Positions 1 through 60,431 of a stretch of 64,000 nt of DNA are shown one piece after another. The notes beneath the pieces are model-generated. The model saw nothing but the letters and a program-made list of their open reading frames with translations. It was not told the DNA's origin and ran no database searches. Each line of letters starts with the position of its first letter. The first letter of the stretch is position 1. This stretch comes from Chloroflexota bacterium (GTDB lineage: Bacteria > Chloroflexota > Limnocylindria > P2-11E), in the NCBI GenBank assembly GCA_005881885.1, contig VBDX01000134.1:4534-68533 (forward strand). The letters are read 5' to 3'. The position numbers and the translations under genes are program-made.

Positions 1-2328
1 CGTCTCTTCAACGAGACCAAGGAGGCACTCGCACAGCAGACCGCAACGAGCGACATCCTGAAGGTCATCGCACGATCACCGACAGACGTTCAGCCGGTAC
101 TCGACGCGATCGCCGAAAACGCCGCCCGGGTTTGCGGCGCGAGCGACGCCCACGTGTATCGCGTCGACGGTGCAGTCCTGATGCAGTGGGCGCACTACGG
201 ACCGATTCCCGGGCTCGACGCCGGCGAGGCGCTGCCTCTCAGCCGCGAGTCCCTGATTGGCCGCTGCATCGTCGACCGAAGGACGATTCACATTCGCGAT
301 GCCGCTGCGGAGCTCGATCCCGCCGACTATCCGATCAGCGTCGATCTCCAGCGCCGCTGGGGCTACCGGACATCCCTCTCGGTGCCTCTGCTTCGTCACG
401 GCGTCGCGATCGGTGGTATCGCCATCCGCCGGATGGAGGTCGAGCCGTTCTCCCTGAAGCAGATCGAGCTTCTCGAGACCTTCGCCGCTCAGGCGGTCAT
501 CGCCATCGAGAACGTGCGTCTCTTCAACGAGACCAAGGAAGCACTCGAGCAGCAGACCGCGATCGCGGACGTGCTCAAGACGATCAGCCGCTCCGCGTTC
601 GATCTCCGGCCCGTCCTCGACGTCGTGCTTGAGAATGCGGTCCGCCTCGCCGGTGCCGATATTGGTTGGCTCTCGCGTGTCGAGAGCGAGCGGTTCCAGA
701 CGATCGCGTATAGCAGCAGCTTCCCGGCAGATGTCCGCGAGGCGCTCGCGAGAGACCGCGCAGCAGGCCATTTCGGCGGCGACTGGCGACCGTTCGGGTC
801 CGAGAGTGGCGTGATGGGCACGGTCCTCGAGCGCCGAACGACCGTTCAGATCGCAGACGCGAAAGCCGACCCGATCCTCGGGAAGTCGCTCGTCGTCCGC
901 TTGACCGAATCGCGTGCCGTTCTCGGAGTGCCAATGCTGCGGGAAGGCGTCGTCATCGGAGGCGTTGTGCTGGCCCGATACGACGTCCGGCCGTTCAACG
1001 AGCGCGATGTTGAGCTCGTCCAGACGTTTGCGGACCAAGCAGCCATTGCGATCGAGAATGTTCGACTCTTCGACGAAACGCGCGCTGCCCTCGAACGCGA
1101 GACGGCGGTAGGCAACGTCCTCAAGACGCTCAGCCGGACCGTCTTCGATCTCGAGCCTGCGCTGGAGGCCGTGGTCGAGAACGCCGCGCGCCTGGCGGAC
1201 GCGGATGTCGCCTGGATGACGAAGCAAGTCGACGGCTTGAACTACGACTGGGGTGCTCGCTATGCGAAATCGGGCGATCCCGATGTGATCTTTGGACAGC
1301 GGGCGTTCGGGCGCAACACGCTCTATGTCGAAGGGTCGGTCATGAACCGGGTCCTTGCGGAACGGCGCACGCTCCACGTGCCGGACATGCAAGCGGAGCC
1401 CGACCTACTGTCGAAATCGAGAGTCGTCCGAGAGACCAGCTCGCGCTCCGTGCTCGGCGTCCCCGTGCTCAGCGAAAGCGAGGTCCTTGGAGCGATCGTC
1501 CTCGGGCGACTCGCGGTCCGACCCTTCTCGGATCGCGAGATCCAGCTCGTGGAGACGTTCGCCGATCAGGCGGCGATCGCGATCCAGAACGTGCGTCTGT
1601 TCAACGAGATTCAGGACAAGAGCCGCCAGCTCGAGGTCGCGAGCCGGCACAAGAGCGAGTTCCTTGCGAACATGAGCCATGAACTCCGGACCCCCCTCAA
1701 TGCCATCATCGGGTTCTCCGAGGTCCTCCTCGAGCGGATGTTCGGCGAGGTCAACACCAAGCAAGAGGACTACTTGCGCGACATCCTCGGGTCGGGCCGC
1801 CATCTGCTCACGCTCATCAACGACATCTTGGATCTTTCGAAGATCGAAGCGGGACGAATGGAGCTCGAGCGAAGCATCTTCTCACTGCGGACGGCACTGG
1901 AGAACGGCGTCACGATGGTGCGCGAGCGCGCCGGCCGTCACGACATCGCTATCGCCATCGATCTCGGGGAGGGCCTCGAGGAGGTCGCTGGCGACGAGCG
2001 CAAAATCAAGCAGGTCATCTACAACCTGCTTTCGAACGCCGTGAAGTTCACACCGGACGGCGGAAGCGTGAACGTGACCGCGGCGCGCGAGAACGGCGCG
2101 GCCACCGTGACCGTTCGCGACACCGGCATCGGGATAGCCCCGGAGGATCAGGAGCGGATCTTCGAGGAATTCAGCCAGGTCGGCCGCGATCCGGAACGAT
2201 CGCGCGAGGGGACCGGCCTTGGGCTCACCCTCTCGAAGCGCTTCGTGGAGTTGCACGGCGGAACGATCAAGGTCGAGAGCGCGCCCGGCCAGGGCAGCGC
2301 GTTCACGTTTACGCTGCCGCAACCATGA
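1..2328 (+). CDS. Multi-GAF sensor histidine kinase, 5'-partial. The reading frame is open from position 1, upstream of the listed ATG at 154
   Basis: Repeated GAF modules joined by a recurring linker helix ([30 protein letters not shown]). HisKA H-box [18 protein letters not shown]. HATPase_c motifs [22 protein letters not shown]. The frame continues to the window start. Confidence 0.85.
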
Positions 2329-2699
2329 CCCGGATCCTCCTCGTCGAAGACAACGAAAAGAACATGAAGCTCGCGCGGGACCTGCTCGCGTACAACGGGC
2401 ACACCGTCTTCGAAGCCACGACCGGCGAAGCGGCTGTGGCGACGGCAACGAAGGAGCTGCCCGACCTCGTCCTGATGGACATTCAGCTCCCGGGCATCGA
2501 CGGCATCGAGGCGCTGCGCCGGATCCGCGCAGACGGCAAGGCCTCGCGCATCCCCGTGGTCGCGTTGACCGCCTCCGTGATGGCCGACGATCGCGAGCGC
2601 TTCGACAAAGCCGGCTTCGACGGATTCCTCGCGAAGCCCATCGACGTCAAGACGTTCAACGACCAAGTCATGCAGCTCATCGCGAAGGGACGCGTATGA
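2325..2699 (+). CDS. Single-domain CheY-like response regulator receiver
   Basis: 124 aa. [10 protein letters not shown]...[13 protein letters not shown]...ALTAS...KPI receiver motifs. ATGA overlap with the kinase stop. Confidence 0.85.
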
Positions 2700-4279
2700 G
2701 CGACCGGCCTGCCCGCATCCTCGCGGTCGATGACAAGCCGGAGAACATTCGCCTGCTGGAGGCGGTCCTCGCGCCATCCGGTTACGAGGTGATCGCGGCA
2801 TCGAGCGGCGACGAGGCCATCGTCAAGGTCCGCGAGCAAACCCCCGACTTGATCCTCACCGACATCGTGATGCCGGGCATGACTGGCTACGAGCTCTGCC
2901 GCCGGCTGCGAGCCGACCCGGCGACGGCCTTCCTGCCGATCGTGACTCTGACCGCCAGCGGTGGCGAAGAAAAGCGCGAAGCTCTTGACGCCGGTGCGGA
3001 CGACTTCGTCGCCAAGCCTTTCGACAAGACGGAGCTCCTTGCTCGCGTGCGCTCGCTGCTGCGCATCAAGCGGTACTACGACGATCTGAACGACGCGCTC
3101 GACCGCCAGACCGCGATCGGGGACGTTCTGCGCACGATCGGCTCGTCGGCATTCGACATCGAGCCCGTCCTTCATTCGGTCGCGCAGCACGCCGCCAGGC
3201 TCTGCGGCGCCGAGAACGTGGTCATCTGGCGCACGACGGGCACCGGCTACCGCCTCTGGGTGGCCCAGGAAGTACGTGACGACTTCATGCGCATCGTCGC
3301 CGACCGTGAGATCCCGATCGGGCCGGACACGATCGTCGGCCGGGCGCACCTCGAGAAGCGGCCGGTCCAGGTGCCCGACATCAGCGAGTACTACCGCGGG
3401 GCGAGCGGACCCGCCGCCGAGATCGCACGGATCGGCGCCTACCGAACGCTCCTCGCCGTGCCGCTCATTCGTGACGATCAGGTCCTCGGCGTCCTGTCGC
3501 TCACACACACCCAGGTCCAGCCGTTCACTGAAGATCAGGTCGCTCTCGTCCGCACGTTCGCCGACCAGGCCGCGATCGCGATCGCGAACGCTGACCTCTT
3601 CGATACGGTCGAGCGTCAACGACAGCAGCTTTCCCGGTTCCTCTCACCGCAGATCGCCGCCCTCATCACCAGCGACGAAGGAGCGAAGATGCTGGAAGGC
3701 CATCGGCGCCAGATCACCGTCGTCTTCCTGGATCTGCGCGGCTTCACGGCCTTTGCGGAGACGGCCGAGCCCGAGGAGGTCCTCGGAGTTCTCCGCGAGT
3801 ACCAGAAGGCGATGGGCGAGCTCATCGTCGCGCACCAGGGCACCCTCGAGCACTTCGCCGGCGACGGGATGATGGTGTGGTTCAACGATCCGCTGCCGGT
3901 CCCGCAGCACGAGCTGCAGGCGGTCCGGATGGCCTGCTCCATGCGCGAGCGGTTCGACGAGCTGGCCAATGCCTGGAACAAGAAGGGTTACGTGCTCGGG
4001 TTCGGCGTCGGCGTCGCGACTGGCTATGCCACGCTCGGACGCATCGGCTTCGAGGGGCGGTACGACTACGGCGCGATCGGCAACGTGGTCATCCTCGCCC
4101 AGAGGTTGTCGGCGGAGGCCAAGGCCGGACAGATCCTCCTGAGCCAGCGCGTCCAGGCCGCCGTCGACCAGGAAGCCGAGACGACCTCCGTAGGCGAGCT
4201 CACCCTCAAGGGTTTCACTCGGCCCGTCCCGGCATTCGACGCGCGGTCCGTGAAGACGCCGGCACCCGTTCGCTCCTGA
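2696..4279 (+). CDS. Response-regulator receiver - GAF - class III adenylate/guanylate cyclase fusion
   Basis: N-terminal receiver (ILAVDDKPENIRLL, LILTDIVMPGMTG, KPF). GAF domain with the same linker motif as the kinase. C-terminal CYCc (ITVVFLDLRGFTAF...HFAGDGMMVWFNDP). ATG at 2696 overlaps the CheY stop (ATGA). The listed ORF start at 2219 is an upstream in-frame artefact. Confidence 0.85.
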   Translation: MSDRPARILAVDDKPENIRLLEAVLAPSGYEVIAASSGDEAIVKVREQTPDLILTDIVMPGMTGYELCRRLRADPATAFLPIVTLTASGGEEKREALDAGADDFVAKPFDKTELLARVRSLLRIKRYYDDLNDALDRQTAIGDVLRTIGSSAFDIEPVLHSVAQHAARLCGAENVVIWRTTGTGYRLWVAQEVRDDFMRIVADREIPIGPDTIVGRAHLEKRPVQVPDISEYYRGASGPAAEIARIGAYRTLLAVPLIRDDQVLGVLSLTHTQVQPFTEDQVALVRTFADQAAIAIANADLFDTVERQRQQLSRFLSPQIAALITSDEGAKMLEGHRRQITVVFLDLRGFTAFAETAEPEEVLGVLREYQKAMGELIVAHQGTLEHFAGDGMMVWFNDPLPVPQHELQAVRMACSMRERFDELANAWNKKGYVLGFGVGVATGYATLGRIGFEGRYDYGAIGNVVILAQRLSAEAKAGQILLSQRVQAAVDQEAETTSVGELTLKGFTRPVPAFDARSVKTPAPVRS

Positions 4280-4317
4280 CCCGACTCAAGAGAGAGCGGG
4301 CCTGCACATGCTAATGT

Positions 4318-4569
4318 ATGTGTATGTTTGGCAGACGGCTTCAAATACTTCTTGATGACCATCGCTATCGGCGCCTCGCTACGCGCGCGCGTCAGACGAA
4401 CAAGTCTGTAGGGGCACTCGTCCGTGAGGCGATCGACCTCGCCTATCCGGCCGGATCGGCGCGTCGCTCCACGGCCTTTCGGACGATCTTTCAGGCGCCG
4501 CGGATCGAACTGCCCTCGCCCCGAGAGCTCCGTCGGGAGCTCGAGGAGCTCCGTTCGGGTCGCGCGTGA
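4318..4569 (+). CDS. vapB: Ribbon-helix-helix antitoxin (VapB/CopG-like)
   Basis: Small protein RLQILLDDHRYRRLATRARQTNKSVGALVREAIDLAY, typical RHH antitoxin. ATGA-type overlap with the downstream PIN gene. Lower GC than its surroundings. Confidence 0.6.
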   Translation: MCMFGRRLQILLDDHRYRRLATRARQTNKSVGALVREAIDLAYPAGSARRSTAFRTIFQAPRIELPSPRELRRELEELRSGRA

Positions 4570-4991
4570 TCGTCCTCGACACGACGGTCCTTGCGTACGC
4601 GGTCGGTGCCGATACGAAGCTCGCCGAGCCCAACCTCCGAATCCTCGAAGCGGTGCGCGACGGAAGACTGGAAGCGACGACGACGGCCGAAGTCATTCAG
4701 GAGTTCGCCCACGTGTACGCGCGGCGCAGGGACCGAGCGCAGGCCGCTCAGTTGGCTCGCGCATACGCTGAGCTTCTGATGCCGCTTGCGGTGGTCGACC
4801 GGGCCGAGCTCGAGGCTGGGCTGGCTCTGTTTGAGCAGGTGCGCGCGCTCGGTGCATTCGACGGTGTGCTCGCGGCCGTAGCGCTCGGCCGCGGAGCAGA
4901 GGCCCTCGTCTCTGCTGATCGCGCGTTCGGCGCCGTGCCGAAGCTGCGACATGTCGATCCGTTCTCGTCGATCGAAGAGCTCTTCGCCTAA
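4566..4991 (+). CDS. vapC: PIN-domain toxin VapC
   Basis: 141 aa. MIVLDTTVLAYAVG... with conserved acidic residues in a PIN fold pattern. Coupled to the upstream RHH gene. Confidence 0.7.
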   Translation: MIVLDTTVLAYAVGADTKLAEPNLRILEAVRDGRLEATTTAEVIQEFAHVYARRRDRAQAAQLARAYAELLMPLAVVDRAELEAGLALFEQVRALGAFDGVLAAVALGRGAEALVSADRAFGAVPKLRHVDPFSSIEELFA

Positions 4992-6307
4992 GCGAGACCC
5001 GCGCGCTTCAGCAGCGGCTGCAGCTGCTCGGCGGCCTTCGCGCGCACCTCGTTCGGATCCATCTTCGTCGGCGTGCCGTCGCGAACTAGGAACTCGCCAT
5101 CCACGAGCACGTGCCGCACCGCACGCGAGCCGCCACCGAACAGGATGCGCGCGGCGGGATCGCCTCCGGGGCCATCGAGACGATCGACATCGAGGACCAC
5201 GAGATCGGCGCGCTTGCCTTGCTCGAGCGTGCCGACTTCCTGATCGATCTTCAGCATCTTCGCACCCTCACGCGTCGCGAGCGCCATCGAATCCGCCGCC
5301 GTGAGCGTGCCCAGCCCGCTGACCACGCGCGCGAGCAAGGTCGCGAGCCGCATTTCCTCGAAGCCATCGAGCTGGTTGTTGCACGCGGCGCCGTCGGCGC
5401 CGATCCCGACCGTGATGCGAGCGGCCCGGAGCTTCGCCACCTGGGCGATTCCGGAGCCGAGCTTGAGGTTCGATGAGGGACAGTGGGCGACCGACGTCTT
5501 CGTCGTGCGGAGGATCTCGATCTCCTGATCGTCGAGGTGCACGCCGTGCGCGATGATCGCGCGCTCGCAAGCGATCCCGGTGTCGAGCAGGTATTGCATC
5601 GGCGTCCGACCGGTTGCCATGACCACCGCGTTGCGCTCGTCGACGCTCTCGTTCGAATGGGTGTGGACCAGAAGGTCGCTCAGCTTCGCGAGCTGGGTGA
5701 CCGCCTCGAGGAGCTCGCGCGTGCACGACAACGCGAAGCGCGGCATGTACACGTACCCGATCCTGCCGCTCGACGCTTTGTGCCAACGCTTGGTGAGGGC
5801 GCCCGCGGCATCGAGCGATGCACGGGTCGTCTCGACCAAGGCCGGGGGCACACCCTCGCCCGAATCCATCATCGCCTGCCCGAAGCGGGCGCGGATGCCA
5901 CTCCGCACCAGCTCCTCCGCCACGATGTCGCCGAACTTCGTCGTTCCCATGTCGAGGATCGTCGTTGTCCCGGTCATCAGGAGATCGAGCAAGCCGAGCC
6001 GAACGCTGGCGCGCACCGACGCCTCATCGTGCGCGGCCTCGAGCGGCCACACGCGGGCGCGGAGCCACTGGAGGAGCGCCATATCTTCGGCAAGGCCGCG
6101 GAAGAGCGTTTGGACGAGATGGATGTGCGTCTGGACGAGCCCCGGCATGACCACGCAGCCCGAGATGTCGACGACCTCCGTGTCAGGCGGCGGTATCACC
6201 TGGCCGAGACCGCCAATGCGCGTGCCACTGACCAGGAGGTCGCCCCACATCGGACGCGGGCTGTCCTTGAGTGGCAGCAACGTCCCGCCGCGTAGGAGGA
6301 GGCTCAT
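4988..6307 (-). CDS. Amidohydrolase-superfamily deaminase/chlorohydrolase (guanine deaminase / MtaD / SsnA-like)
   Basis: Metal-binding HxH (QTHIHLVQT), HTHSNES, DHGVHL and GADGAACNN motifs. Start chosen at MSLLLRGG (ATG 6305-6307), which overlaps the stop of the upstream allC-like gene (ATGA). The listed ORF extends to 6625 through Arg/Gly-rich junk. Confidence 0.75.
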   Translation of the reverse strand: MSLLLRGGTLLPLKDSPRPMWGDLLVSGTRIGGLGQVIPPPDTEVVDISGCVVMPGLVQTHIHLVQTLFRGLAEDMALLQWLRARVWPLEAAHDEASVRASVRLGLLDLLMTGTTTILDMGTTKFGDIVAEELVRSGIRARFGQAMMDSGEGVPPALVETTRASLDAAGALTKRWHKASSGRIGYVYMPRFALSCTRELLEAVTQLAKLSDLLVHTHSNESVDERNAVVMATGRTPMQYLLDTGIACERAIIAHGVHLDDQEIEILRTTKTSVAHCPSSNLKLGSGIAQVAKLRAARITVGIGADGAACNNQLDGFEEMRLATLLARVVSGLGTLTAADSMALATREGAKMLKIDQEVGTLEQGKRADLVVLDVDRLDGPGGDPAARILFGGGSRAVRHVLVDGEFLVRDGTPTKMDPNEVRAKAAEQLQPLLKRAGLA

Positions 6308-7560
6308 GTCTGATACGCGAGCTCGCGCAACGCGGTCGCGAGCGTGCGCGTCCCCAGCACGACGTCCTCGGCCGCGGTCGCCTCGTCGGGGCAGTGGGAT
6401 CGCCCGCCGATGCTCGGAACGAAGAGCATCCCGGCGTTCGCCGCGGCCGTGAGCACCTGCGCGTCGTGCCCCGCGCCGCTCGTCATGTCGCGCGGCTCCA
6501 TGCCGGCCGCGAGGCAGGCCCGGCGGAGAACGTCCGCGATACGCGGCGAGAGCGTCACCGGGGAACGGTCCCGAAGCGTGCGGATCTCCACATCCAATCC
6601 ACGCTCCCGCGCGATCGCCTTGCACGCATCACCGATATGGGTGAGAAGCTCTGTCCGACGCGCGGGCTCCGGGTGTCGTGCATCAACTGTGAAACGAGCG
6701 ACGCCAGGAACCACGTTGACCTGCGCCGGCTCCACGGCGATGGTGCCCACCGTCGCCACCGCCGGGTGCCCCATGCGGACCGCGGTATCGGCGATGGCAA
6801 GCGTCATCGCTGAGGCGCCCAGCAAAGCATCACGGCGGCGAGTCATGGCCATCGCGCCGGCGTGATCGGGCTGTCCGCGCACCGTCACCTCGAGGTGCGC
6901 GGTGCCGGCGATGGTCGTGACGACGCCGAGCCGCGGCCCGTGATCCTCGAGAATCGGGCCTTGCTCTACGTGCAGCTCGACGAAGACGTCGATGTCGCGA
7001 CGCACGGCACCCGCCGCAGTGGCGGGGTCGAGGCCGACCGAACGCATCGCGTCGGCGAGCGTGATGCCGTCGGCGTCGCGGATGCGTTCGGCTTCGTCCG
7101 GCTCGAGGCGATCGGCGATGGCGCGCGCGCCCCAGAAGTTGGTGTTGAAACGGCTGCCCTCTTCCTCGCAGATGGCGACACACTCGAGGATCCGCGTCGA
7201 CCGGCCGAAGCGGTGCCAGAGACTCGTGACCGCTTCGATCCCCGCGACGATGCCGAGCGCGCCGTCGAGCGCGCCGCCGCCGCGGACCGTGTCGATGTGC
7301 GATCCGGTCACGATCGCGCGGCCTCCGCGCGAGCCCTCGATGCGCCCCCAAACGTTCCCGACCGCGTCGCGTCGCACGAAGAGACCCGCTTCTTTGAGCC
7401 AGCTGGCGACGAGTTCCATCGCCGAGCTCCACGCCGGCGTGTACAGGGCGCGATAGATCCCGCCCTGCGCGAGCGCTCCGCGCTGGGCGAGATCGTCCAG
7501 CCGGCGCAGGAGCCGGCGCTCGTCGATCGCGACCAGCTCTCCCGTCGTGGTCGCGCTCAT
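6304..7560 (-). CDS. allC: Allantoate amidohydrolase / N-carbamoyl-amino-acid hydrolase (M20 family)
   Basis: M20 dimerisation-type Zn hydrolase motifs (GSHIDTV, EEGSRF, GAGHDAQ). Lies in a ureide operon. ATGA overlaps on both sides. Confidence 0.8.
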   Translation of the reverse strand: MSATTTGELVAIDERRLLRRLDDLAQRGALAQGGIYRALYTPAWSSAMELVASWLKEAGLFVRRDAVGNVWGRIEGSRGGRAIVTGSHIDTVRGGGALDGALGIVAGIEAVTSLWHRFGRSTRILECVAICEEEGSRFNTNFWGARAIADRLEPDEAERIRDADGITLADAMRSVGLDPATAAGAVRRDIDVFVELHVEQGPILEDHGPRLGVVTTIAGTAHLEVTVRGQPDHAGAMAMTRRRDALLGASAMTLAIADTAVRMGHPAVATVGTIAVEPAQVNVVPGVARFTVDARHPEPARRTELLTHIGDACKAIARERGLDVEIRTLRDRSPVTLSPRIADVLRRACLAAGMEPRDMTSGAGHDAQVLTAAANAGMLFVPSIGGRSHCPDEATAAEDVVLGTRTLATALRELAYQT

Positions 7561-8948
7561 GCGGCGGTTCCTTCCTCCCTCGTGATGAATCGTCCATGCG
7601 GTGGGTTCGTGACGATCTCCCCGTCACGGTAGACGACGCGGCCGCGTACGAGCGTCGAAACGATCCGACCGCGGAACGAACGCCCGATGTACGGGTCCAC
7701 CCCGCGCGTATACGAGCGGTCGCGGTCGAGCGTCCATTCGCGATCCGGATCGAAGAGCACGACGTCGGCGTCCGACCCGGCCGCGATGGTTCCCTTCCGT
7801 GGCCAGAGCCCGAAGCGCCTCGCCGGCTTTGCCGCGAGACGCCAGGCGATGAAGCCCGCGACCTTGCGGACATCGAGCGCGTCGCCCGCCCGCCGCGCGG
7901 CTTCGGTGAAGGTCACCGGCAGCAAGGACTGCACGCCGGCGACACCGCCCCACGCCGCGAAGATGTCCCGTGTCCCGCGCGCCTTGAGATCCGGCGTACA
8001 CGGCGAGTGATCCGATGCGACCAGGTCGATCTTGCCGTCGACGAGCGCCTGCCAGAGCCCATCGCGGTTACGCATATCCCGAATGGGCGGTGCGCACTTG
8101 AGCGCAGGGCCCAGGTGCTCCATGTCGCTGTCGTCGAACTCGAGATAGTGCGGACAGGTTTCGACGGTCACGTCCGTCCCGGAGTCACGCGCCGCGCCGA
8201 TCGCGCCAAGAGCCTCGACCGCCGAGAGATGAACGATGTGGATGCGCGCGCCGGCCTCGCGAGCGGCCGCGCAGGCTCGCGCGACCGCACGCACCTCGAC
8301 GAGCGGCGGCCGCGACGCCGCCCACGCAGCCGCGTCACGCCGGCCGTCACCCCGAACGCGCCCGGTCGCCTCGCGCACGAGCGTCTCGTCTTCTGCATGC
8401 AAGGCGACGAGCAGACCGGCCTCCGCTGCGGCCCGGAGAGCCGGCACCAGCTCGTCGTCCGCCAGCGGCGGAAACTCAGGAACGCCGCTGTCGCAGAGGA
8501 AGGCCTTGCAGCCGATCGCGCCGCGACCCTTCAGCTCGTGGAGGCTCATCGGATCCGCGTCGACCAGCCCACCCCAGAGACCGAAGTCGACGATCGAGGC
8601 GCGCTCGGCCGCGGCACGCTTGGCGTCGAACGCGGTGCCGTCCAGAAGCGGCGGCACGGAGTTGAGGGGCATGTCCAGCACGGTCGTGATGCCGCCGGCC
8701 GCAGCGGCGCGGCTCCCGGTCGCCCAGCCTTCCCACTCCGTCCGGCCTGGCTCGTTGAAGTGCACGTGCGCGTCGACCATCCCCGGAAGCGCCAGCAACC
8801 CGCGGGCGTCGATCTCGTCCGCCGCCGTCGAGGCGCCCGGTTCCACGAGCGCGCTGATCCGACCGCCGCGGATCAGCACATCCCGCGCGTAGGCCCCCTC
8901 CGACACGACGACGGCACCGCGGATCGCAAGATCCGCACGAGGGCTCAC
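7557..8948 (-). CDS. allB: Allantoinase (cyclic amidohydrolase)
   Basis: DAHVHFNEPGRTEWEG..., carboxylated-Lys region, and the DHSP motif of the allantoinase/dihydropyrimidinase family. Operon context. Confidence 0.8.
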   Translation of the reverse strand: MSPRADLAIRGAVVVSEGAYARDVLIRGGRISALVEPGASTAADEIDARGLLALPGMVDAHVHFNEPGRTEWEGWATGSRAAAAGGITTVLDMPLNSVPPLLDGTAFDAKRAAAERASIVDFGLWGGLVDADPMSLHELKGRGAIGCKAFLCDSGVPEFPPLADDELVPALRAAAEAGLLVALHAEDETLVREATGRVRGDGRRDAAAWAASRPPLVEVRAVARACAAAREAGARIHIVHLSAVEALGAIGAARDSGTDVTVETCPHYLEFDDSDMEHLGPALKCAPPIRDMRNRDGLWQALVDGKIDLVASDHSPCTPDLKARGTRDIFAAWGGVAGVQSLLPVTFTEAARRAGDALDVRKVAGFIAWRLAAKPARRFGLWPRKGTIAAGSDADVVLFDPDREWTLDRDRSYTRGVDPYIGRSFRGRIVSTLVRGRVVYRDGEIVTNPPHGRFITREEGTAA

Positions 8949-9385
8949 TCCTCGTCGATGCCGAAGTCCTGCGCGCCCTCCCAGAGGGTGAGCCGTCCGA
9001 CCTCCGCGAGTCGCTCGTTGCCTTCAACGACGGTCGCGAAGTGATTCCCGGCGAGCTGACCCACCTTGCTCGCGAAGAGGGTCGAACCGTACGGAAAAAG
9101 GATCTCCATCTCCGAAATCCCGCCCGGATAGACGAGGATCTCGCCCGGTGCCGGATGACTCGTGTGATTCTCGTACTCGACACCGAGGCGCTTGGAGCCC
9201 ATCGGGACCCAGGTCGCCTCGCCGCTCCAGCGCACGTGTAGCAGCTTGCTTCGCAGGGGAAGGAGCTTGCGTATCGCGGCGGTCGTCTTCGGCGCCGCCT
9301 GCTCCTCGAGACGCGCCCGGAAGGTGAACGGGCCCGCGGTGATCCGGAGCATCCGCATCGCGGGCGTACGATACCGGCCGCTCAT
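8945..9385 (-). CDS. Cyclophilin-like-fold protein (DUF3830-like) common in ureide clusters. An alternative start at 9352 is possible
   Basis: MLRITAGPFTFRARLEEQAAPKTTAAIRKLLPL... A purine-rich GGAAAGGG sits 5 nt upstream of ATG 9383-9385. Stop overlaps the allantoinase start. Confidence 0.5.
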   Translation of the reverse strand: MSGRYRTPAMRMLRITAGPFTFRARLEEQAAPKTTAAIRKLLPLRSKLLHVRWSGEATWVPMGSKRLGVEYENHTSHPAPGEILVYPGGISEMEILFPYGSTLFASKVGQLAGNHFATVVEGNERLAEVGRLTLWEGAQDFGIDEE

Positions 9386-9677
9386 GGCGGCCCTTTCCAC
9401 CCACGTGCTGGACACGGCGACCGGCCGTCCGGCCGCAGGCGTCGCCGTCGCCCTCGAACGTGGGGGGAACGTGGTCGCACGCGGCACGACCGACGCGGAC
9501 GGCCGCATCAGCGAGCTCGCGTCGTCGCTCGCGCCCGGCCGCTACGAGCTCGTCTTCGAGCTGGCCGGCGGCTTCTTCCGCCGTGTGGCGCTCGAGATCG
9601 AGATCGGAAGCGAACCCACATACCACGTCCCGCTGCTCGTCACCCCGTTCGGCGTCACGAGCTACCGCGGCTCGTGA
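9384..9677 (+). CDS. hiuH: 5-hydroxyisourate hydrolase (transthyretin-like)
   Basis: LSTHVLDTATGRPAAGV N-terminus and the C-terminal YRGS signature. The listed ORF start at 9192 is upstream junk. Confidence 0.85.
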   Translation: MAALSTHVLDTATGRPAAGVAVALERGGNVVARGTTDADGRISELASSLAPGRYELVFELAGGFFRRVALEIEIGSEPTYHVPLLVTPFGVTSYRGS

Positions 9678-10117
9678 TGCGCATCGCGCGGGCGGATCTC
9701 GACGCCATTTTCGAGCGCGCGCCCGGCCTCGCCGAGCGCGTCCGTGGTGAGGACGCCGACGCGATCATCGCATCCGCGCGTGCCGCGCTCGCGCGGATGA
9801 GCGAGGCCGAGCGGATCGCGGTGCTGAACGCGCATCCCCGGATCGGAGCGGATGTGAGATCCCTCTCCGCGGCATCTCGCCGCGAGCAAGGACGCGCCGC
9901 CAGCGACGCGACGCATCAACACCTTCGTCGCTTGAACGACGAGTACGAGCGCAAATTCGGCTTCCGCTTCGTGGTCTTCGTGCATGGGCGTTCGAAGGTC
10001 GAGATCGTCCGGGTCTTCGAGGAGCGACTCAGGCGCGCGAAAGCGCACGAGCTTGCGACGGGTATCGAGGAGTTCCTCGCCATCGCCCACGACCGCTTGC
10101 TGGGAGTGCCACGGTGA
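9674..10117 (+). CDS. uraD: OHCU decarboxylase
   Basis: LNAHPRIG and YERKFGFRFVVFV motifs. GTGA/ATGA overlap with the hiuH stop. Confidence 0.85.
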   Translation: MMRIARADLDAIFERAPGLAERVRGEDADAIIASARAALARMSEAERIAVLNAHPRIGADVRSLSAASRREQGRAASDATHQHLRRLNDEYERKFGFRFVVFVHGRSKVEIVRVFEERLRRAKAHELATGIEEFLAIAHDRLLGVPR

Positions 10118-10965
10118 CGTCGACCGAGATCAGCTACGGCAAGGCGCGCGTCGTCTTCTATCGCCTCGCCGGACGTGAGGCTCCGCCACTTGCCGCGTCC
10201 GTCGACATCGACGTCTTCGGCGAGCGGTTCATCTCGGCGTACACCGAAGGCGATAACCGGGCCGTCGTCGCGACCGACACGATGAAGAACTTCGTATACG
10301 CGATGGCCGCCGAGTACGCCGGAAACACGCTCCTGGGACTCTGCGCGTTCGTCGGCCGCAGGTTTCTTGCGACCTACCCGGTGATGGAGGCGCTCCGTGT
10401 CTCTGCGCGCGAGGTGCCGCTCGACGCCGCTTCCGGTGAGCATGGGCCGAGCGAGGTCCTTTTCCGCTCGACGAGAGGCGACGGCGCGGTCGCGCGGGTC
10501 TCGCTCGACGTCGACGCCGGCGAGCCTCGGGTCACCGGCGCTCAGAGCGGCTGGGAAGGCATGGTCCTCGTGAAGACCACCGGGAGCTCGTTCGCCGCGT
10601 TCGCCCGTGACGATTACACGACCCTCCCCGAGCTCATCGATCGCCCGCTGACCATCCATCTCGACGCGTACTGGCGCTACGCGGATCTGCGCGACGGGAT
10701 CGCGGAGGGCGTCGGTTTTTTCGGACCGCGCGCGGTGCGCGACGAGATCGAGCGCACGTTCCACGAGTTCAACAGCCGGTCGATCCAGCATCTCGTGCAC
10801 GAGATGGGGACGCGCTTGCTCGCCGCGCATCCACAGCTCGCGGAAGCGGAGTTCGTCGCGGAGAACCACACGCCCGACCACGTGCGCGACGGCGCAGGCG
10901 GTGTGAAGGTGTTCGCCCAAGCGCGTGGCACGTTCGGGAAGATCGGCCTAGTCCTGCGGCGGTGA
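10114..10965 (+). CDS. uox: Urate oxidase (uricase)
   Basis: Tandem T-fold with YGKARVVFYR and VVATDTMKNFVY motifs. GTG start overlaps the uraD stop. Confidence 0.85.
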   Translation: MTSTEISYGKARVVFYRLAGREAPPLAASVDIDVFGERFISAYTEGDNRAVVATDTMKNFVYAMAAEYAGNTLLGLCAFVGRRFLATYPVMEALRVSAREVPLDAASGEHGPSEVLFRSTRGDGAVARVSLDVDAGEPRVTGAQSGWEGMVLVKTTGSSFAAFARDDYTTLPELIDRPLTIHLDAYWRYADLRDGIAEGVGFFGPRAVRDEIERTFHEFNSRSIQHLVHEMGTRLLAAHPQLAEAEFVAENHTPDHVRDGAGGVKVFAQARGTFGKIGLVLRR

Positions 10966-11114
10966 GGCGGAGGTCGGATTACGGGGTTTCATCTCAAGGG
11001 TAGACTCGGACGGTAGCCAAACGGAAAAAGCTCACTGGTCCTGCGCGCGTCCTGGTCATAACCGATCAACCGCTCGCGAACCTTATTGCCCTCACTCTCA
11101 ACCATGGGATTTAC

Positions 11115-11747
11115 GTGACGCGCACGGTGGCAACGGCGGAGGCGGGGCTCAACGAGCTTCGTGAGTGGCGCCCGCACCTCCTCTTGGTGGACATCGACCA
11201 GGAACGCGCCGAATCGCTCGACTTCATCGGCCAGCGCATCGCGAATCGCCGGATCCCGACGATCGCGCTGACCATCCGAGGCGATCTCAAAACCAAGCTC
11301 GCCGCATTCGATCATGGCGCCGACGACATCGTCACGGTGCCCTTCGCTCCCGAGGAGCTGCTCGCGCGCGTGCTCGCTCTCACGCGGCGCACGTACGGAG
11401 ATGCGGTGCCGTTCGCACCGGCGATCAAGGTGGCGGGCCTCGAGATCGACCTCCTCGAGCAACGCGTCAAGGCGGGAGCCTCAGAGGTTCGGCTGACCTC
11501 ACTCGAGCTTTCGCTCTTGTATTTGCTTGCATCGAACCCCGGGCAGACCCTGGCTCGGGACGAGATTCTCGATGCGCTCTGGGGCGCCGACTACGTCGCC
11601 GAGAGCAACGTCGTGGATCGTCACATTCGCAATCTCCGCAAAAAGCTCAGGGAAAACGGGCGCCGGCCCCGCTTCATCGGTACGGTCCCCAGAAAGGGCT
11701 ACCGCTTCCTGGGACGAAGTGATCGTCTTCATGAGTCTGCTTCATGA
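11115..11747 (+). CDS. Atypical OmpR-family response regulator (orphan). The conserved receiver N-terminus continues in frame upstream to about 11043, with no canonical start codon
   Basis: C-terminal winged-helix domain (VAGLEIDLLEQRV...LTSLELSLLYLLASNPGQTLARDEILDALWG...VDRHIRNLRKKL...GYRF). Upstream in-frame KRKKLTGPARVLVITDQPLANLIALTLNHG is paralogous to the N-terminus of the next gene. The receiver lacks the acidic DD pair and the conserved Lys (DDIVTVPF). Confidence 0.7.
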   Translation: MTRTVATAEAGLNELREWRPHLLLVDIDQERAESLDFIGQRIANRRIPTIALTIRGDLKTKLAAFDHGADDIVTVPFAPEELLARVLALTRRTYGDAVPFAPAIKVAGLEIDLLEQRVKAGASEVRLTSLELSLLYLLASNPGQTLARDEILDALWGADYVAESNVVDRHIRNLRKKLRENGRRPRFIGTVPRKGYRFLGRSDRLHESAS

Positions 11748-11777: not shown

Positions 11778-12533
11778 GTGCCGGCAGCCAAAAGGGAGCG
11801 CCAGGAGAGTGAAGGACGTTCGGGACCCCGGGTCCTGATCGTCATGAGCGAGTCCATCAGCAATCTCGTCGCGCTGACGCTTCAGCACGGGCGCTACGAG
11901 TCCAGGAGGACCATCGATGCGGATGAGTGCCGCCAGCTGATCCGCGAGTGGGAGCCGCAGCTCGCCTTTATCGACCTCGACATCTACCCAAATTTCATCG
12001 ACGTCTTCCACCGCGAACAGGCGGTGGTGCCGACGCCGATCCTCGCGTTCACGAGAAAGCGCGATACCGCCCTCAAGATGAGTGCGTTCGAGCGCGGGGT
12101 CGACGACATCATCGAGGTGCCTTTCACGCTCGATGAGATCGTCGCACGTCCGTACGCGCTCATGCGACGCGTCCACCGCATCGACGTCCCGCTCGTGCCC
12201 AAAATCAGGCTGGACGGGCTCGAGGTCGACCTCATCGAGCAGCGGGTCCGTGTCGGCGGTAGGGAACTTTCGCTGACACCGATCCAACAGACCCTGCTCT
12301 ACCTGCTCGCCGCAAACGCGGGAGAGGTGCTGAGCCGCGAGGAGCTCCTGACGAGCATCTGGGGCGGCGAGTTCGAGATCGAGAGCAACGTCGTCGACCG
12401 CCACATCCGCGAGCTGCGAGTGAAGCTCGGCGACGACTGGCGCACGCCGCAGTTCATCGAGACAATGGCCGGCAAGGGCTACCGGTTCAAGTCGCAGGCC
12501 GCGGCGGATCGCGGCGGCGAAGCCGCGAAGTGA
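11778..12533 (+). CDS. Atypical OmpR-family response regulator (orphan), paralogue of the preceding gene
   Basis: Receiver-like N-terminus (RVLIVMSESISNLVALTL...LAFIDLD...VDDIIEVPF) followed by OmpR-type wHTH (LEVDLIEQRVRVGGRELSLTPIQQTLLYLL...VDRHIRELRVKL...GYRF). Confidence 0.8.
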   Translation: MPAAKRERQESEGRSGPRVLIVMSESISNLVALTLQHGRYESRRTIDADECRQLIREWEPQLAFIDLDIYPNFIDVFHREQAVVPTPILAFTRKRDTALKMSAFERGVDDIIEVPFTLDEIVARPYALMRRVHRIDVPLVPKIRLDGLEVDLIEQRVRVGGRELSLTPIQQTLLYLLAANAGEVLSREELLTSIWGGEFEIESNVVDRHIRELRVKLGDDWRTPQFIETMAGKGYRFKSQAAADRGGEAAK

Positions 12534-39539: not shown

Positions 39540-39610
39540 GCGGGTGTGTTGTAGTGGAAACAAAAATCCTTCCCAAGGATTGATCGCGGGTCCGATTCCC
39601 GCCACCCGCT
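39540..39610 (+). tRNA. tRNA-Gly (anticodon CCC). No encoded CCA. T-loop has C at position 55
   Basis: Manual fold. Acceptor GCGGGTG/CACCCGC. D-stem TTGT/ACAA with GG in the loop. Anticodon stem AATCC/GGATT, loop TTCCCAA. T-arm GCGGG-TCCGATT-CCCGC. Discriminator U, as in bacterial tRNA-Gly. 71 nt. Confidence 0.6.
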
Positions 39611-39836
39611 CAGTAGAAACCTAGATGACAATACGTGATTCGTTTAAGGCTCTCGTCGGAAAGCGCGTCGTCCTCGACCTCACATCGACCGCCGATAGCG
39701 CGGTCGCGCGAGGCAAGCTCCTCGGAACGATCGATGCCGCAGACGGTCTCGTCCTCATCGTCGAACCCGACGAAGCACCAGGGACGCGACGCAGCGTGCA
39801 TTCACATCACGTGACGAACGCACGCGCGGTCTAGCG

Positions 39837-58372: not shown

Positions 58373-59020
58373 ATGTCGTCCCGGATCGCTCGGCTCATCG
58401 TGCGCGGCCTCTTCGCGGCGCTCTTCCGGATCCGCCGAAGCGGCGATCTCCCCGCGCACGGCCCGCTCATCGTCGTCGCGAACCATCAGGGCTGGGCGGA
58501 CGGCTTCCTTCTGGCTGCCGCGTTCCCGCTCGCGGCCCCCATCCGCCTTCTCGGAGATCGCGACGGCACGATGGGCGTCTGGTGGCATCGCGCGATCCTG
58601 CGTCTGGTTGGGCTCATCATTCCCATCGATCGCGGGGCGGCGGGCGCGGATCGCGGCGCGATCAAGGCGACGTTTGCCGCTCTTGCGCGCGGAGAGATCG
58701 TCGTCGTCTTCGCCGAAGGCCGCGTGTCTCGCGCGGAGTCGGCGCTCGGGCCGTTCGCTCGCGGGGTGGGCTACCTCGCGCTGCGATCGGGAGCCCCGGT
58801 CCTTCCGGTCTGGCTCAGTGGGACGGCAGAGCTCTATCTGGGCCGGGATCTCGCGCTCATCGCGGGCCGGCCGCGGTCCGTCGCGGCGGCGACGCCGACG
58901 AAGGAGCGGACGTCCAAGCTCGCGCGCGTGCTTCATGACGATCTGGCTTCGCTCACACCCTTGTGGCGGGATCCCGAGCCGGCCGAAAAGCGCTGGCGCT
59001 GGCTGACGGAGCTTTTCTAG
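58373..59020 (+). CDS. plsC: 1-acyl-sn-glycerol-3-phosphate acyltransferase
   Basis: VANHQGWADG (HX4D), FAEGRVSR and GAPVLPV motifs. Confidence 0.75.
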   Translation: MSSRIARLIVRGLFAALFRIRRSGDLPAHGPLIVVANHQGWADGFLLAAAFPLAAPIRLLGDRDGTMGVWWHRAILRLVGLIIPIDRGAAGADRGAIKATFAALARGEIVVVFAEGRVSRAESALGPFARGVGYLALRSGAPVLPVWLSGTAELYLGRDLALIAGRPRSVAAATPTKERTSKLARVLHDDLASLTPLWRDPEPAEKRWRWLTELF

Positions 59021-59688
59021 GCGCGGATCTCCCGCAGAAGCGAGCTCTCGTCGAGCACGCGGATGTTCCGGCGACCCACCTCGATCAAACCGCGCCGCTC
59101 GAAGTCGGCGAGTAGCTTGTTCACCGTCATGCGCGTAGAGCCGATCGCGGCCGCGAGATCGTCCTGGGTCAGGGGCATCTTCCCGGCTCGCCCGACCTCC
59201 ACGAGGTACTTGGCGAGTCGGCTCGCGACGTCGAGGAAGGCGAGGTCGCCGACCTGGGACTCGAGCTTCCGGATCGTCCGCGTAAGGCGCTCGAACATGT
59301 AGCGGCGCGCGCCCTCGTTGCGACCGAGCACGCGGAGCGCGCCATCGCGCGCGATCTGGAGTGCGGTCGTCGCCACGACGCACACCGCGGTCCCGTCGCG
59401 CGGCCCCTGTTCGAATAGAGCGAGCTCGCCGAAGAACTCGCCCCGCCGATGCAGTGACACCAGAAGCTCCCGCCCGTTCTCGTCAAGAAGGAGCACCTTC
59501 ACCAGACCATCGACGACCACGTAGGCGTGCGCGGCCGGATCGCCCTGGTGGTACACAACTTCGTCGGCCTTGAACTTGCGCAAGGCCATCGAGTTGCCGA
59601 GGTCAAGGCGATCGGCGTCCGGAAGGACCTCGAGTGGGAGCACGTCACCGAGCGTGCCGGCGATCGCGAGTATCTCCTCCGGCCGCAT
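59017..59688 (-). CDS. Crp/Fnr-family transcriptional regulator
   Basis: cNMP-binding domain (FGELALF) and C-terminal HTH (TQDDLAAAIGSTRMTVNKLL). Confidence 0.8.
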   Translation of the reverse strand: MRPEEILAIAGTLGDVLPLEVLPDADRLDLGNSMALRKFKADEVVYHQGDPAAHAYVVVDGLVKVLLLDENGRELLVSLHRRGEFFGELALFEQGPRDGTAVCVVATTALQIARDGALRVLGRNEGARRYMFERLTRTIRKLESQVGDLAFLDVASRLAKYLVEVGRAGKMPLTQDDLAAAIGSTRMTVNKLLADFERRGLIEVGRRNIRVLDESSLLREIRA

Positions 59689-60431
59689 CAGTACCGGACC
59701 TGACGGCGGAGGGTTTCTTGGTCTCTTATTTCGATACGGCGGCGGCCGACCGCGACGGCCCCGAGGCCCTCGAGGTCCGCGAGCGCACGGTTTACGGAAA
59801 CGCGCGTGGCGCCGACGAACGCCGCGAGATCGTCCTGCGTCAGCTCGACCTCGTTACGCTCGTTCGCCGCCGCGAGATCGAGAAGGCACTTCGCGACGCG
59901 GCCCGGTACGTCGAGGAACACGAGGTCTTCGATCCGGCCGGAGGCGCGGCGGACCGTGCGAGCGAGCAGTCGGAGGATCTCCCTGATCGCGCGCGGGCTT
60001 CGCTCGATGACCCGGAGAAAGTCGTCGCGCGCGATCGTCACAACCTGCGTCTCGCTAAGTGCGGTGACCGTGGCGGATCGCGGGGCGTCATCGAAGAGCG
60101 CGAGCTCGCCGAACACCGCGCCGTCGCGCTCGATCGCCACGACGATCTCATGTCCTTGCTCGTCAGGGATCGCAACCTTCACCGAGCCCGACGCGATCAC
60201 GTAGAGGTGCCCAGCCGGATCATCGCGATGGAAGACGACCTCGTCGCGGGCAAAGCGACGGGACCGGATGTGCGCCGCGACCTCTTTGCGTTCCGCCTCC
60301 GTCAGCGCCCCGAATATCGGCACGCCAAGGAGAACGCGCGCGACCGCGTCGGCGTCCACGGCCTCGGAACGATACGCTCCGAATGGTGGGCGCACGCATT
60401 CGCGTGGTGGGTCACCGCGGCGCCGCGGCAC
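59688..60431 (-). CDS. Crp/Fnr-family transcriptional regulator, tandem paralogue. Probable GTG start near 60359
   Basis: cNMP-binding (FGELALF) and HTH (TQDDLAAFVGATRVSVNRAL). The upstream-most ATG would overlap the divergent GDPD gene, so the GTG at VDADAVARV is more likely. Confidence 0.75.
   Translation of the reverse strand: MPRRRGDPPRECVRPPFGAYRSEAVDADAVARVLLGVPIFGALTEAERKEVAAHIRSRRFARDEVVFHRDDPAGHLYVIASGSVKVAIPDEQGHEIVVAIERDGAVFGELALFDDAPRSATVTALSETQVVTIARDDFLRVIERSPRAIREILRLLARTVRRASGRIEDLVFLDVPGRVAKCLLDLAAANERNEVELTQDDLAAFVGATRVSVNRALADLEGLGAVAVGRRRIEIRDQETLRRQVRY

Follow-up and report, generated by a model that had tools for sequence, protein, structure and literature searches.

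At the left end of a 64,000 nt stretch of Chloroflexota DNA (class Limnocylindria; contig VBDX01000134.1, positions 4,534 to 68,533; this whole stretch is called the window below) lie three overlapping genes, for a histidine kinase with a long array of GAF modules, a stand-alone receiver and a receiver-GAF-cyclase protein. With moderate confidence, and on the grounds of gene order, domain content and conserved residues, their products are read here as a cytoplasmic two-component system with a cyclic-nucleotide output, the most likely target of which is the purine-catabolism cluster surrounding the genes.

In the mechanism proposed, the 11 GAF modules of the kinase, arrayed on continuous helices, would sense intracellular ligands and set autophosphorylation of the H-box histidine (codon 1678-1680). 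The phosphoryl group would then pass to both receivers encoded by the next two coupled genes, a step suggested by the conserved coupling of the operon. The DivK-like small receiver (Asp52) may either compete for phosphoryl groups as a sink or modulate the kinase, and the PleD-like receiver of the cyclase protein (Asp56) would be the second phosphoryl acceptor. Its phosphorylation would be felt through a 40-residue helix by the cyclase's own GAF domain, and through a second long helix by the dimeric catalytic domain, turning on synthesis of a cyclic nucleotide monophosphate (cNMP). The cNMP would be read by Crp-family regulators, most likely by the one encoded at 59.7-60.4 kb, and the target of the regulation would most likely be the embedding purine cluster (xanthine dehydrogenase, uricase, allantoinase and others).

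The gene layout can be read directly. Frame 1 is open from base 1 to a stop codon at 2326-2328, so that the first open reading frame (ORF) is truncated by the left window edge and what is present (1-2328, plus strand, as are all parts of the three genes given below) is the 3′ third of the kinase gene. It is followed by the gene for the small receiver (2325-2699, 124 residues) and the gene for the cyclase protein (2696-4279, 527 residues), each starting within a 4 nt ATGA overlap with its predecessor, at 2325-2328 and 2696-2699. Such coupling, and the order GAF kinase, lone receiver, receiver-GAF-cyclase, had been claimed in an earlier note on this DNA made from its letters alone; the first is borne out by the sequence itself and the second by Pfam. 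All domain scores exceed the curated cut-offs: three GAF stretches, HisKA and HATPase_c in the kinase fragment, Response_reg (91 bits) in the small receiver, and Response_reg (residues 8-119), GAF (154-296) and Guanylate_cyc (338-506) in the cyclase protein, for which structure matches and an AlphaFold2 model agree. A promoter and terminator scan gave no convincing terminator within 4279-4318, directly after the cyclase gene, and an Rfam scan detected neither a riboswitch nor any other RNA close to the operon, its sole match in the window being a tRNA at 39.5 kb.

The complete kinase gene is available from a 99-kb soil-metagenome scaffold (L001) that carries the cyclase protein unchanged and with which the window aligns at an offset of 7305, differing at 18 positions in 14.3 kb. 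There the gene occupies 3106-9633. From a likely TTG start at 3106, preceded by GGGAGG, it encodes ~2,175 residues, with 11 tandem GAF modules of ~170-180 residues each ahead of the HisKA and HATPase_c core, and no membrane segment was found in the full protein. The ‘multi-GAF’ kinase of the earlier note is thus indeed a GAF-rich HisKA kinase, though that note missed both the size of the array and the purine-cluster setting of the operon. Over 7.7 kb two independent assemblies (L002 and L003) run colinear with L001 at 99.7%, so its module order is no accident of assembly. The window holds module 9 (1-516), module 10 (517-1062; 95% conserved in the orthologous loci L006 and L010) and module 11 (1063-1593), which adjoins the kinase core. 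In the HisKA (DHp) domain (1651-1854, residues 551-618 of the fragment) the H box reads SHELRTPLN, and in the HATPase_c catalytic domain (1990-2322) the N box (2023-2052), G1 (2119-2136), F (2158-2172) and G2 (2209-2226; GTGLGL) are all located, which completes the set of motifs of a two-component kinase.

Close homologues of the cyclase are found in Candidatus Limnocylindria and other Chloroflexota; more distant ones occur in Actinomycetota such as Gaiellaceae, and in one isolate, Nostocoides sp. F2B08. The loci are here divided by cyclase identity into group 1 (at least 56%) and group 2 (44-50%). In group 1 the three-gene unit with its 4 nt overlaps is kept at cyclase identities of 83, 73, 71 and 56%, and in every group 1 locus with enough flanking sequence the operon lies between two sets of purine-catabolism genes. 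On one flank is a divergent xanthine dehydrogenase (XDH) operon with genes for the FAD, Fe-S and Mo subunits. On the other are convergent genes for an amidohydrolase, allantoate amidohydrolase, allantoinase and a DUF3830 protein, and then those for hydroxyisourate hydrolase, OHCU decarboxylase and urate oxidase. In the window the minus strand carries the deaminase-like amidohydrolase (4988-6307), allantoate amidohydrolase (6304-7560), allantoinase (7557-8948) and DUF3830 (8945-9385) genes, and the plus strand those for hydroxyisourate hydrolase (9405-9677), OHCU decarboxylase (9677-10117) and urate oxidase (10114-10965). NCBIfam scores identify all of them except the DUF3830 gene, which has no NCBIfam match and is a constant member of the purine cluster in all loci examined. 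At two loci (L005 and L009, 56% identity) the purine cluster is rearranged, yet it is still linked to the operon. At four others (L013, L090, L091 and L092) a single gene encoding three or four GAFs and a cyclase stands between the XDH and amidohydrolase genes, with no kinase and no receivers. As the same slot holds such fused GAF-cyclases, GAF sensing and cyclase output are the constant parts of the arrangement.

Between the XDH operon and the gene for the kinase or fused cyclase lies a divergent promoter region of ~65 nt (L001:3037-3105), which is almost invariant across L001 and seven other loci (L004, L006, L008, L010, L012, L013 and L038) and contains GGATTATCACTTCCGTGTTCG and GGTCACTAGGAT. 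In L001 the neighbouring gene for the FAD-binding XDH subunit (2413-3036, upstream of the window) lacks ~219 nt of internal sequence that L010 and the other loci have; either this strain may have an impaired XDH or there may be a local assembly error in the scaffold.

Candidate readers of the cyclase product are at hand. Two Crp/Fnr regulators at 59-60.4 kb had been named as such at the outset, and both ORFs (59017-60431) do have cNMP_binding (79.5 and 89.1 bits) and HTH_Crp_2 domains by Pfam. The one at 59688-60431 (minus strand) has the canonical FGELALF...PRSAT cNMP-binding motif; the other, at 59017-59688 (minus strand), has PRDGT in place of RSA and a weaker link to the cyclase. In L005 and L009 the gene coupled immediately downstream of the cyclase gene encodes a 710-residue M50-peptidase-like membrane protein that has two cNMP-binding domains. 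The XDH operon of these loci ends in a Crp gene, whose product shares 52% identity along its whole length with the first of the window regulators; for the second, the identity with the L005 Crp is 38%. The window Crp of 59.7-60.4 kb is a probable orthologue of that in L005 and L009, and is the predicted reader. (In both of these loci the gene for the membrane protein is followed by small genes with weak Frankia_peptide matches and then by the Crp gene, at L005:11563-16000 and L009:11563-15603.)

The place of the operon within the purine cluster could also be inherited gene order without regulatory meaning, the system itself being a general stress or redox sensor. That is possible, if somewhat doubtful. 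Group 2 relatives of the same three-part design are not beside purine genes, and GAFs bind many types of ligand, the closest solved ones binding cAMP, haem or cGMP with no precedent for a purine catabolite. Inspection by eye of the XDH-kinase intergenic region showed no Crp-type TGTGA-N6-TCACA palindrome, just an everted TCAC-N4-GTG and a repeated TCACT. However, mere inheritance fits poorly with a linkage that survives both the rearrangement of the cluster in L005 and L009 relative to the rest and, in four independent loci, the replacement of the two-component unit by a fused GAF-cyclase. It is also at odds with the sharing of the conserved divergent promoter region by the kinase and XDH operons.

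Which protein phosphorylates which is the next question, and it bears on the term ‘phosphorelay’ that had been applied to the three genes. Both receivers have the acidic pair, aspartate, threonine and lysine of two-component receivers. In the small receiver these are, from the translation, E8/D9, the phospho-acceptor D52 (2478-2480), T82 and K104. Its best match among solved structures is DivK (1m5t, E 5e-26), and at the level of families it is matched best by receivers of hybrid kinases (BarA, TorS and ArcB). The PleD-like receiver domain of the cyclase protein (2717-3054; best solved match PleD, E 9e-40) has D12/D13, the phospho-acceptor D56 (2861-2863), T86 and K107, all of them invariant in 56 orthologues. 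An intermediate receiver distinct from the output receiver, as a relay would need, is thus present in the stand-alone protein of 2325-2699. A profile of the Hpt domain built from nine relatives had no match at E≤10 when run against six-frame ORFs from the window and from ten orthologous loci, and tblastn gave no Hpt match below E 1.9. Because no Hpt domain is found in the window, the name phosphorelay, in its strict His-Asp-His-Asp sense, is not supported, and the system looks like a branched two-component system instead.

A true multi-step relay would run from the kinase to the small receiver only, then to an Hpt protein encoded elsewhere, and from there to the cyclase receiver. We regard it as rather unlikely. 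The likeness of the small receiver to those of hybrid kinases speaks for it, as does the arrangement in group 2, where its equivalent forms part of a hybrid kinase with two receivers and Hpt is either fused too (L031) or encoded separately, just after or before the cyclase gene (right after in L019-L024 and L027). Besides the failure of the profile, it has against it that the very clade with a separate receiver gene is the one lacking the Hpt gene, and that the kinase here has no fused receiver. L031 is from the cultured actinobacterium Nostocoides sp. F2B08 (NZ_WESE01000001.1: 629956-652303). Its kinase is GAF2-HisKA-HATPase-REC-REC-Hpt and is followed by an overlapping REC-GAF-cyclase gene; the cyclase has the His/Gly specificity pair of the window cyclase, described below, together with the canonical asparagine. 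The isolate could serve as an experimental model.

The output domain of the system has the profile and fold of a class III cyclase. Guanylate_cyc (PF00211) scores 67.7 bits against a cut-off of 21.9, and the domain (3707-4213) was delimited by alignment to CyaB (3r5g), Cya2 (2w01) and CyaC (1wc0). In an AlphaFold2 model built with 56 orthologues (mean pLDDT 81) a continuous 40-residue helix (residues 111-150; 3026-3145) is predicted to run from REC α5 through a linker motif shared with the kinase modules into α1 of the GAF module (3071-3592). From the other end of this module its C-terminal helix is predicted to pass into a cyclase-transducer-like segment, LSRFLSPQIAALITS, ahead of the catalytic domain (3530-3694; modelled as helices 279-324 and 327-333, the monomer model being of low confidence at 312-336). 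From the resemblance of its sequence, this segment would be a transducer element. The REC-GAF half of the model superposes on the dual-sensor kinase 6oap (TM 0.79), and the catalytic half on CyaB (TM 0.83) and Cya2 (TM 0.80). The repeated linker motif would thus be a signalling helix joining modules, since the modelled helices are continuous through it.

In its key segments the catalytic domain aligns without gaps with Pseudomonas aeruginosa CyaB, Synechocystis Cya2 and Spirulina CyaC. The metal-binding aspartates, loss of which the earlier note would have taken to reveal an inactive pseudo-cyclase, are both present. They are D346 (3731-3733), in FLDLRGFT, and D390 (3863-3865), in AGDG; they align with the aspartates of the three enzymes, and are invariant in 120-121 of the 121 close homologues from which column counts were taken. 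The phosphate-binding R348, the transition-state R470 (4103-4105) and the terminal K505 are invariant in the same set. Three other positions are non-standard. The first substrate-specifying position, lysine in adenylate and glutamate in guanylate cyclases, is His386 (3851-3853), and is histidine in all 121. The second, Asp/Thr in adenylate and Cys/Ser/Gly in guanylate cyclases, is Gly459 (4070-4072), with 108 homologues having glycine and 13 alanine. The position of the transition-state asparagine is occupied by Ile466 (4091-4093), in 120 of the 121. Asn463 (4082-4084), three residues before it, is present in 115 and co-occurs with the isoleucine.

Neither of the purine-specifying pairs (Lys with Asp/Thr, or Glu with Cys/Ser/Gly) is therefore found. 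The K/D-versus-E/C comparison gives neither answer, so the purine of the product is not predictable from the His/Gly pair, and ‘adenylate’, as the cyclase had been called, is unproven. A wider set of 147 representatives, at about 50-65% identity, has Arg, His or Gln at the ‘Lys’ position and never Lys. Most of these retain the canonical transition-state asparagine, with Thr or Ser at that position in some members of the clade; the Asn463/Ile466 combination is concentrated in the subclade of the window cyclase, with a few sequences having both or neither. The invariance of D346, R348, D390, R470, K505 and His386 points to selection on the active site, and the conservation of the odd residues argues for a site that works but is non-standard.

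Decay to a weak or inactive pseudo-cyclase, kept as a dimerisation or scaffold module or for binding of nucleotide without turnover, is improbable. It would account for the replacement of Lys by His, of Asp/Thr by Gly and of the transition-state Asn by Ile, and for the Thr or Ser found at the last of these positions in the wider clade. However, invariance of both metal aspartates, the two arginines, the terminal lysine and His386 is not the pattern of decay, and Asn463, in co-occurring with Ile466, may substitute for the lost asparagine. Nor would an inactive enzyme be expected from the cNMP-binding genes coupled to the cyclase gene in L005 and L009. In Mycobacterium tuberculosis Rv1900c the substrate lysine and catalytic asparagine are replaced (by Asn and His) and are reportedly dispensable for activity. 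A product other than cAMP or cGMP, for instance a pyrimidine cyclic nucleotide, would suit the absence of the purine-selecting residues here and of lysine throughout the 147 relatives, but it is very improbable, given that the partner genes in L005 and L009 encode ordinary CAP-type cNMP-binding domains with FGE...R[GS]AT motifs, that the guanylate cyclase Cya2 also has glycine at the second specificity position, and that no defence-type effector gene is nearby.

Several points weigh against a cyclic-nucleotide two-component system governing purine catabolism. The purine link is a matter of synteny alone, within one bacterial class, group 2 relatives being outside purine clusters, and all sequences come from metagenome assemblies. 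The shared promoter region lacks the Crp palindrome, and the candidate Crp reader is encoded 55 kb away in the window genome. With His386, Gly459 and Ile466 at three canonical catalytic positions, activity could be low or the product different. The hybrid kinases of group 2, with their two fused receivers and Hpt, suggest that the small receiver here may be a relay intermediate with an unlinked Hpt.

The GAF array of this proposed system is itself of interest. The 11 modules of the kinase are 31-54% identical to one another, and their number differs between orthologues (cyclase identity at least 56%), with counts of 6, 6, 7, 8, 10, 10, 11, 12 or 13. Two further loci were set aside: L007, with apparently two GAFs in its kinase, is cut or chimeric at the left end of its contig, and L011, with a short kinase frame, has a contig problem of the same kind. 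The module order is 1 to 11 in L001 versus 1,2,5,6,X,8,9,4,10,11 in L010; orthologous modules are 83-96% identical, and the difference is one of unit-sized insertions and deletions at the DNA level. The most stable modules are the kinase-proximal 10 and 11. Module 6 (L001:5767-6276) is 65-72% conserved across the distant orthologues L006, L012 and L005, versus 40-52% for other modules; that it is the sole distal module so conserved hints at a special role. As to ligands, the NKFDE signature of cNMP-binding GAFs of the PDE2/CyaB1 type (searched as N-K...F-x3-D-E) is absent from both kinase and cyclase. The GAF profile matches the GAFs of CyaB2, DevS and phosphodiesterases at a generic level only, and such generic matches to cAMP-, haem- and cGMP-binding GAFs were set aside as uninformative about the ligand.

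Each end of a module is marked by a repeat. At the DNA level the linker and N-terminal GAF helix is present in four copies (6-101, 522-617, 1068-1163 and 3076-3171) with 69-71% nucleotide identity, and the C-terminal GAF helix in another four (461-539, 1007-1085, 1538-1616 and 3537-3615); in both cases the last copy is in the cyclase gene. The linker repeat that the earlier note described as common to kinase and cyclase is therefore real. Its cyclase copy, RYYDDLNDALDRQTAIGDVLRTIGSSAFD, has the AL[ED].QTAI.DVL.TI..S.FD part and not RLF[ND]ET[KR], the portion in common with the kinase copies being ALD-RQTAIGDVLRTIGSSAFD. Nor is the motif unusual, as that note had it. With one GAF module as query, 5,405 protein clusters were found at E≤1e-10, and the motif is in most of the matches listed; it is the signature of a GAF subfamily with many members. 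A recent GAF duplication between kinase and cyclase was also rejected. The cyclase GAF is 31-40% identical to the kinase modules, no closer than those modules are to each other. The shuffling that had been suggested for this pair of genes is nevertheless documented in relatives, at the same shared helices.

The evidence is in the fused genes. In L013 the GAF at the junction is the third of four and is 82% identical to kinase module 9. Its junction is in the N-terminal helix (...RLFNKTKEALE/RQTAIGDVLRTIGSAAFD), and the fourth GAF (g4) is 64% identical to the GAF of the window cyclase. In L090, L091 and L092 the junction GAF is the last and is 77-79% identical to module 9; the junction is in the C-terminal helix, at FADQAAIAI, and leads straight onto the transducer segment and catalytic domain. 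Among the kinases, those of L001 and L010 have a module 9 orthologue and those of L004, L006, L008 and L012 do not. As module 9 orthologues adjoin the cyclase in the fused genes, GAF modules have been transferred between the arrays of kinases and the genes for cyclases, and the break points lie within the two conserved helices. The change could have been in either direction, by deletion from the split form or by insertion into the fused form. A broader proposal is more tentative. Poly-GAF arrays may be cassette-built metabolite integrators, in which 6-13 modules on one helical spine are gained, lost, reordered and exchanged within the helices ALE-QTA and FADQAAIAI and can be linked to a class III cyclase directly or else via an inserted kinase-receiver relay; with the hitherto uncharacterised His/Gly cyclase clade and Crp they would constitute a cyclic-nucleotide control circuit for purine catabolism in Limnocylindria.

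Parts of the design have counterparts elsewhere. As in the DivJ/PleC-DivK-PleD system of Caulobacter, one HisKA kinase is associated with a single-domain receiver and a receiver-cyclase with adjacent genes, and DivJ and PdhS models are among the top matches of the kinase core. Unlike there, the output is PF00211 and not GGDEF, a GAF intervenes between receiver and output, and the sensor is a cytoplasmic array of 11 GAFs. With no GGDEF output, the likeness to DivK-PleD is one of function and not of membership. CyaC (receiver-kinase-receiver-cyclase) is controlled by phosphotransfer, and Anabaena CyaB1 and CyaB2 (tandem GAF-PAS-cyclase) by tandem GAFs; their catalytic domains are class IIIb-like. 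CyaC (1wc0) and the GAFs of CyaB2 (1ykd) rank among the best solved-structure matches of the present system. Here, by contrast, the components are divided among three genes, NKFDE is missing from the GAFs, and His/Gly/Ile stands in place of Lys/Thr/Asn. The dual-sensor kinase 6oap/6oaq/6ob8 is similar in having receiver and GAF on one long helix, so that two inputs lead to one output; the REC-GAF superposition on 6oap covers ~310 columns and the sequence match is at E 2.7e-17. However, the GAF of that system is a bilin-binding photosensor and its output is a kinase.

For the catalytic domain the closest solved structures are P. aeruginosa CyaB (3r5g, E 4.5e-32) and Synechocystis Cya2 (2w01, E 1.7e-26), at 34% identity and TM 0.80-0.83. 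The specificity pair is Lys/Thr in CyaB, Glu/Gly in Cya2 and His/Gly here, and both enzymes keep the transition-state asparagine where the window cyclase has isoleucine. Rv1900c (1yk9), matched at 2e-10, is the precedent for activity with non-canonical residues, as noted above; it belongs to another subfamily, with other replacements and an α/β-hydrolase N-terminus. Close too are the systems of Nostocoides sp. F2B08 (L031) and of a Limnocylindrales locus (L019), where a REC-GAF-cyclase (44-50% identity) is encoded after a GAF-array kinase by overlapping genes. They differ in having two kinase-fused receivers and an Hpt domain or gene, in not being in a purine cluster and, for L031, in keeping the asparagine.

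Some other features of the window adjoin the operon and purine genes. Between the cyclase and amidohydrolase genes are an RHH antitoxin-like ORF (4318-4569) and a PIN-domain toxin ORF (4566-4991) with a 4 nt overlap. The pair is present in L002 and L003. L004, L006, L008 and L010 have only ~50 nt at the position, so this VapBC-like pair is a strain-specific insertion. After the uricase gene, in all orthologous loci, are two OmpR-family regulators (11004-11747 and 11778-12533) whose receiver halves lack the acidic pair and the conserved lysine (VPF for KPF), and which look independent of phosphorylation. The first of them is receiver-like from ~11040, yet there is no ATG, GTG or TTG between the upstream stop codon and 11115. 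The tRNA is tRNA-Gly(CCC) (39540-39611), in a stretch of lower G+C (0.58-0.62 at 38.4-40.0 kb, versus ~0.68 elsewhere).

Class III cyclases under two-component control, and cyclases controlled by tandem GAFs, are already known. Literature searching on REC-GAF cyclases, on non-canonical residues in class III, on the QTAT motif, on signalling in Limnocylindria and on control of purine catabolism by cAMP turned up nothing specific, and no account of this family, of its motif or of a regulatory link such as this. Several features appear to be undescribed. One is a kinase with 11 non-identical GAFs (6-13 in orthologues), as cassettes that differ between close relatives. Another is a single genomic slot in which the same GAF sensor and cyclase are connected either via a kinase-receiver relay or by fusion at two helix junctions; this natural series of split and fused forms lends itself to testing how a GAF signal passes along helical linkers. 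A third is an extensive clade of cyclase domains in which the canonical lysine is never found and Arg, His or Gln stands in its stead. Lastly, in an abundant, uncultured class of soil Chloroflexota there is a conserved physical link between cyclic-nucleotide signalling and the scavenging of purines and nitrogen. If that link is regulatory, it would represent a new control logic for purine catabolism.

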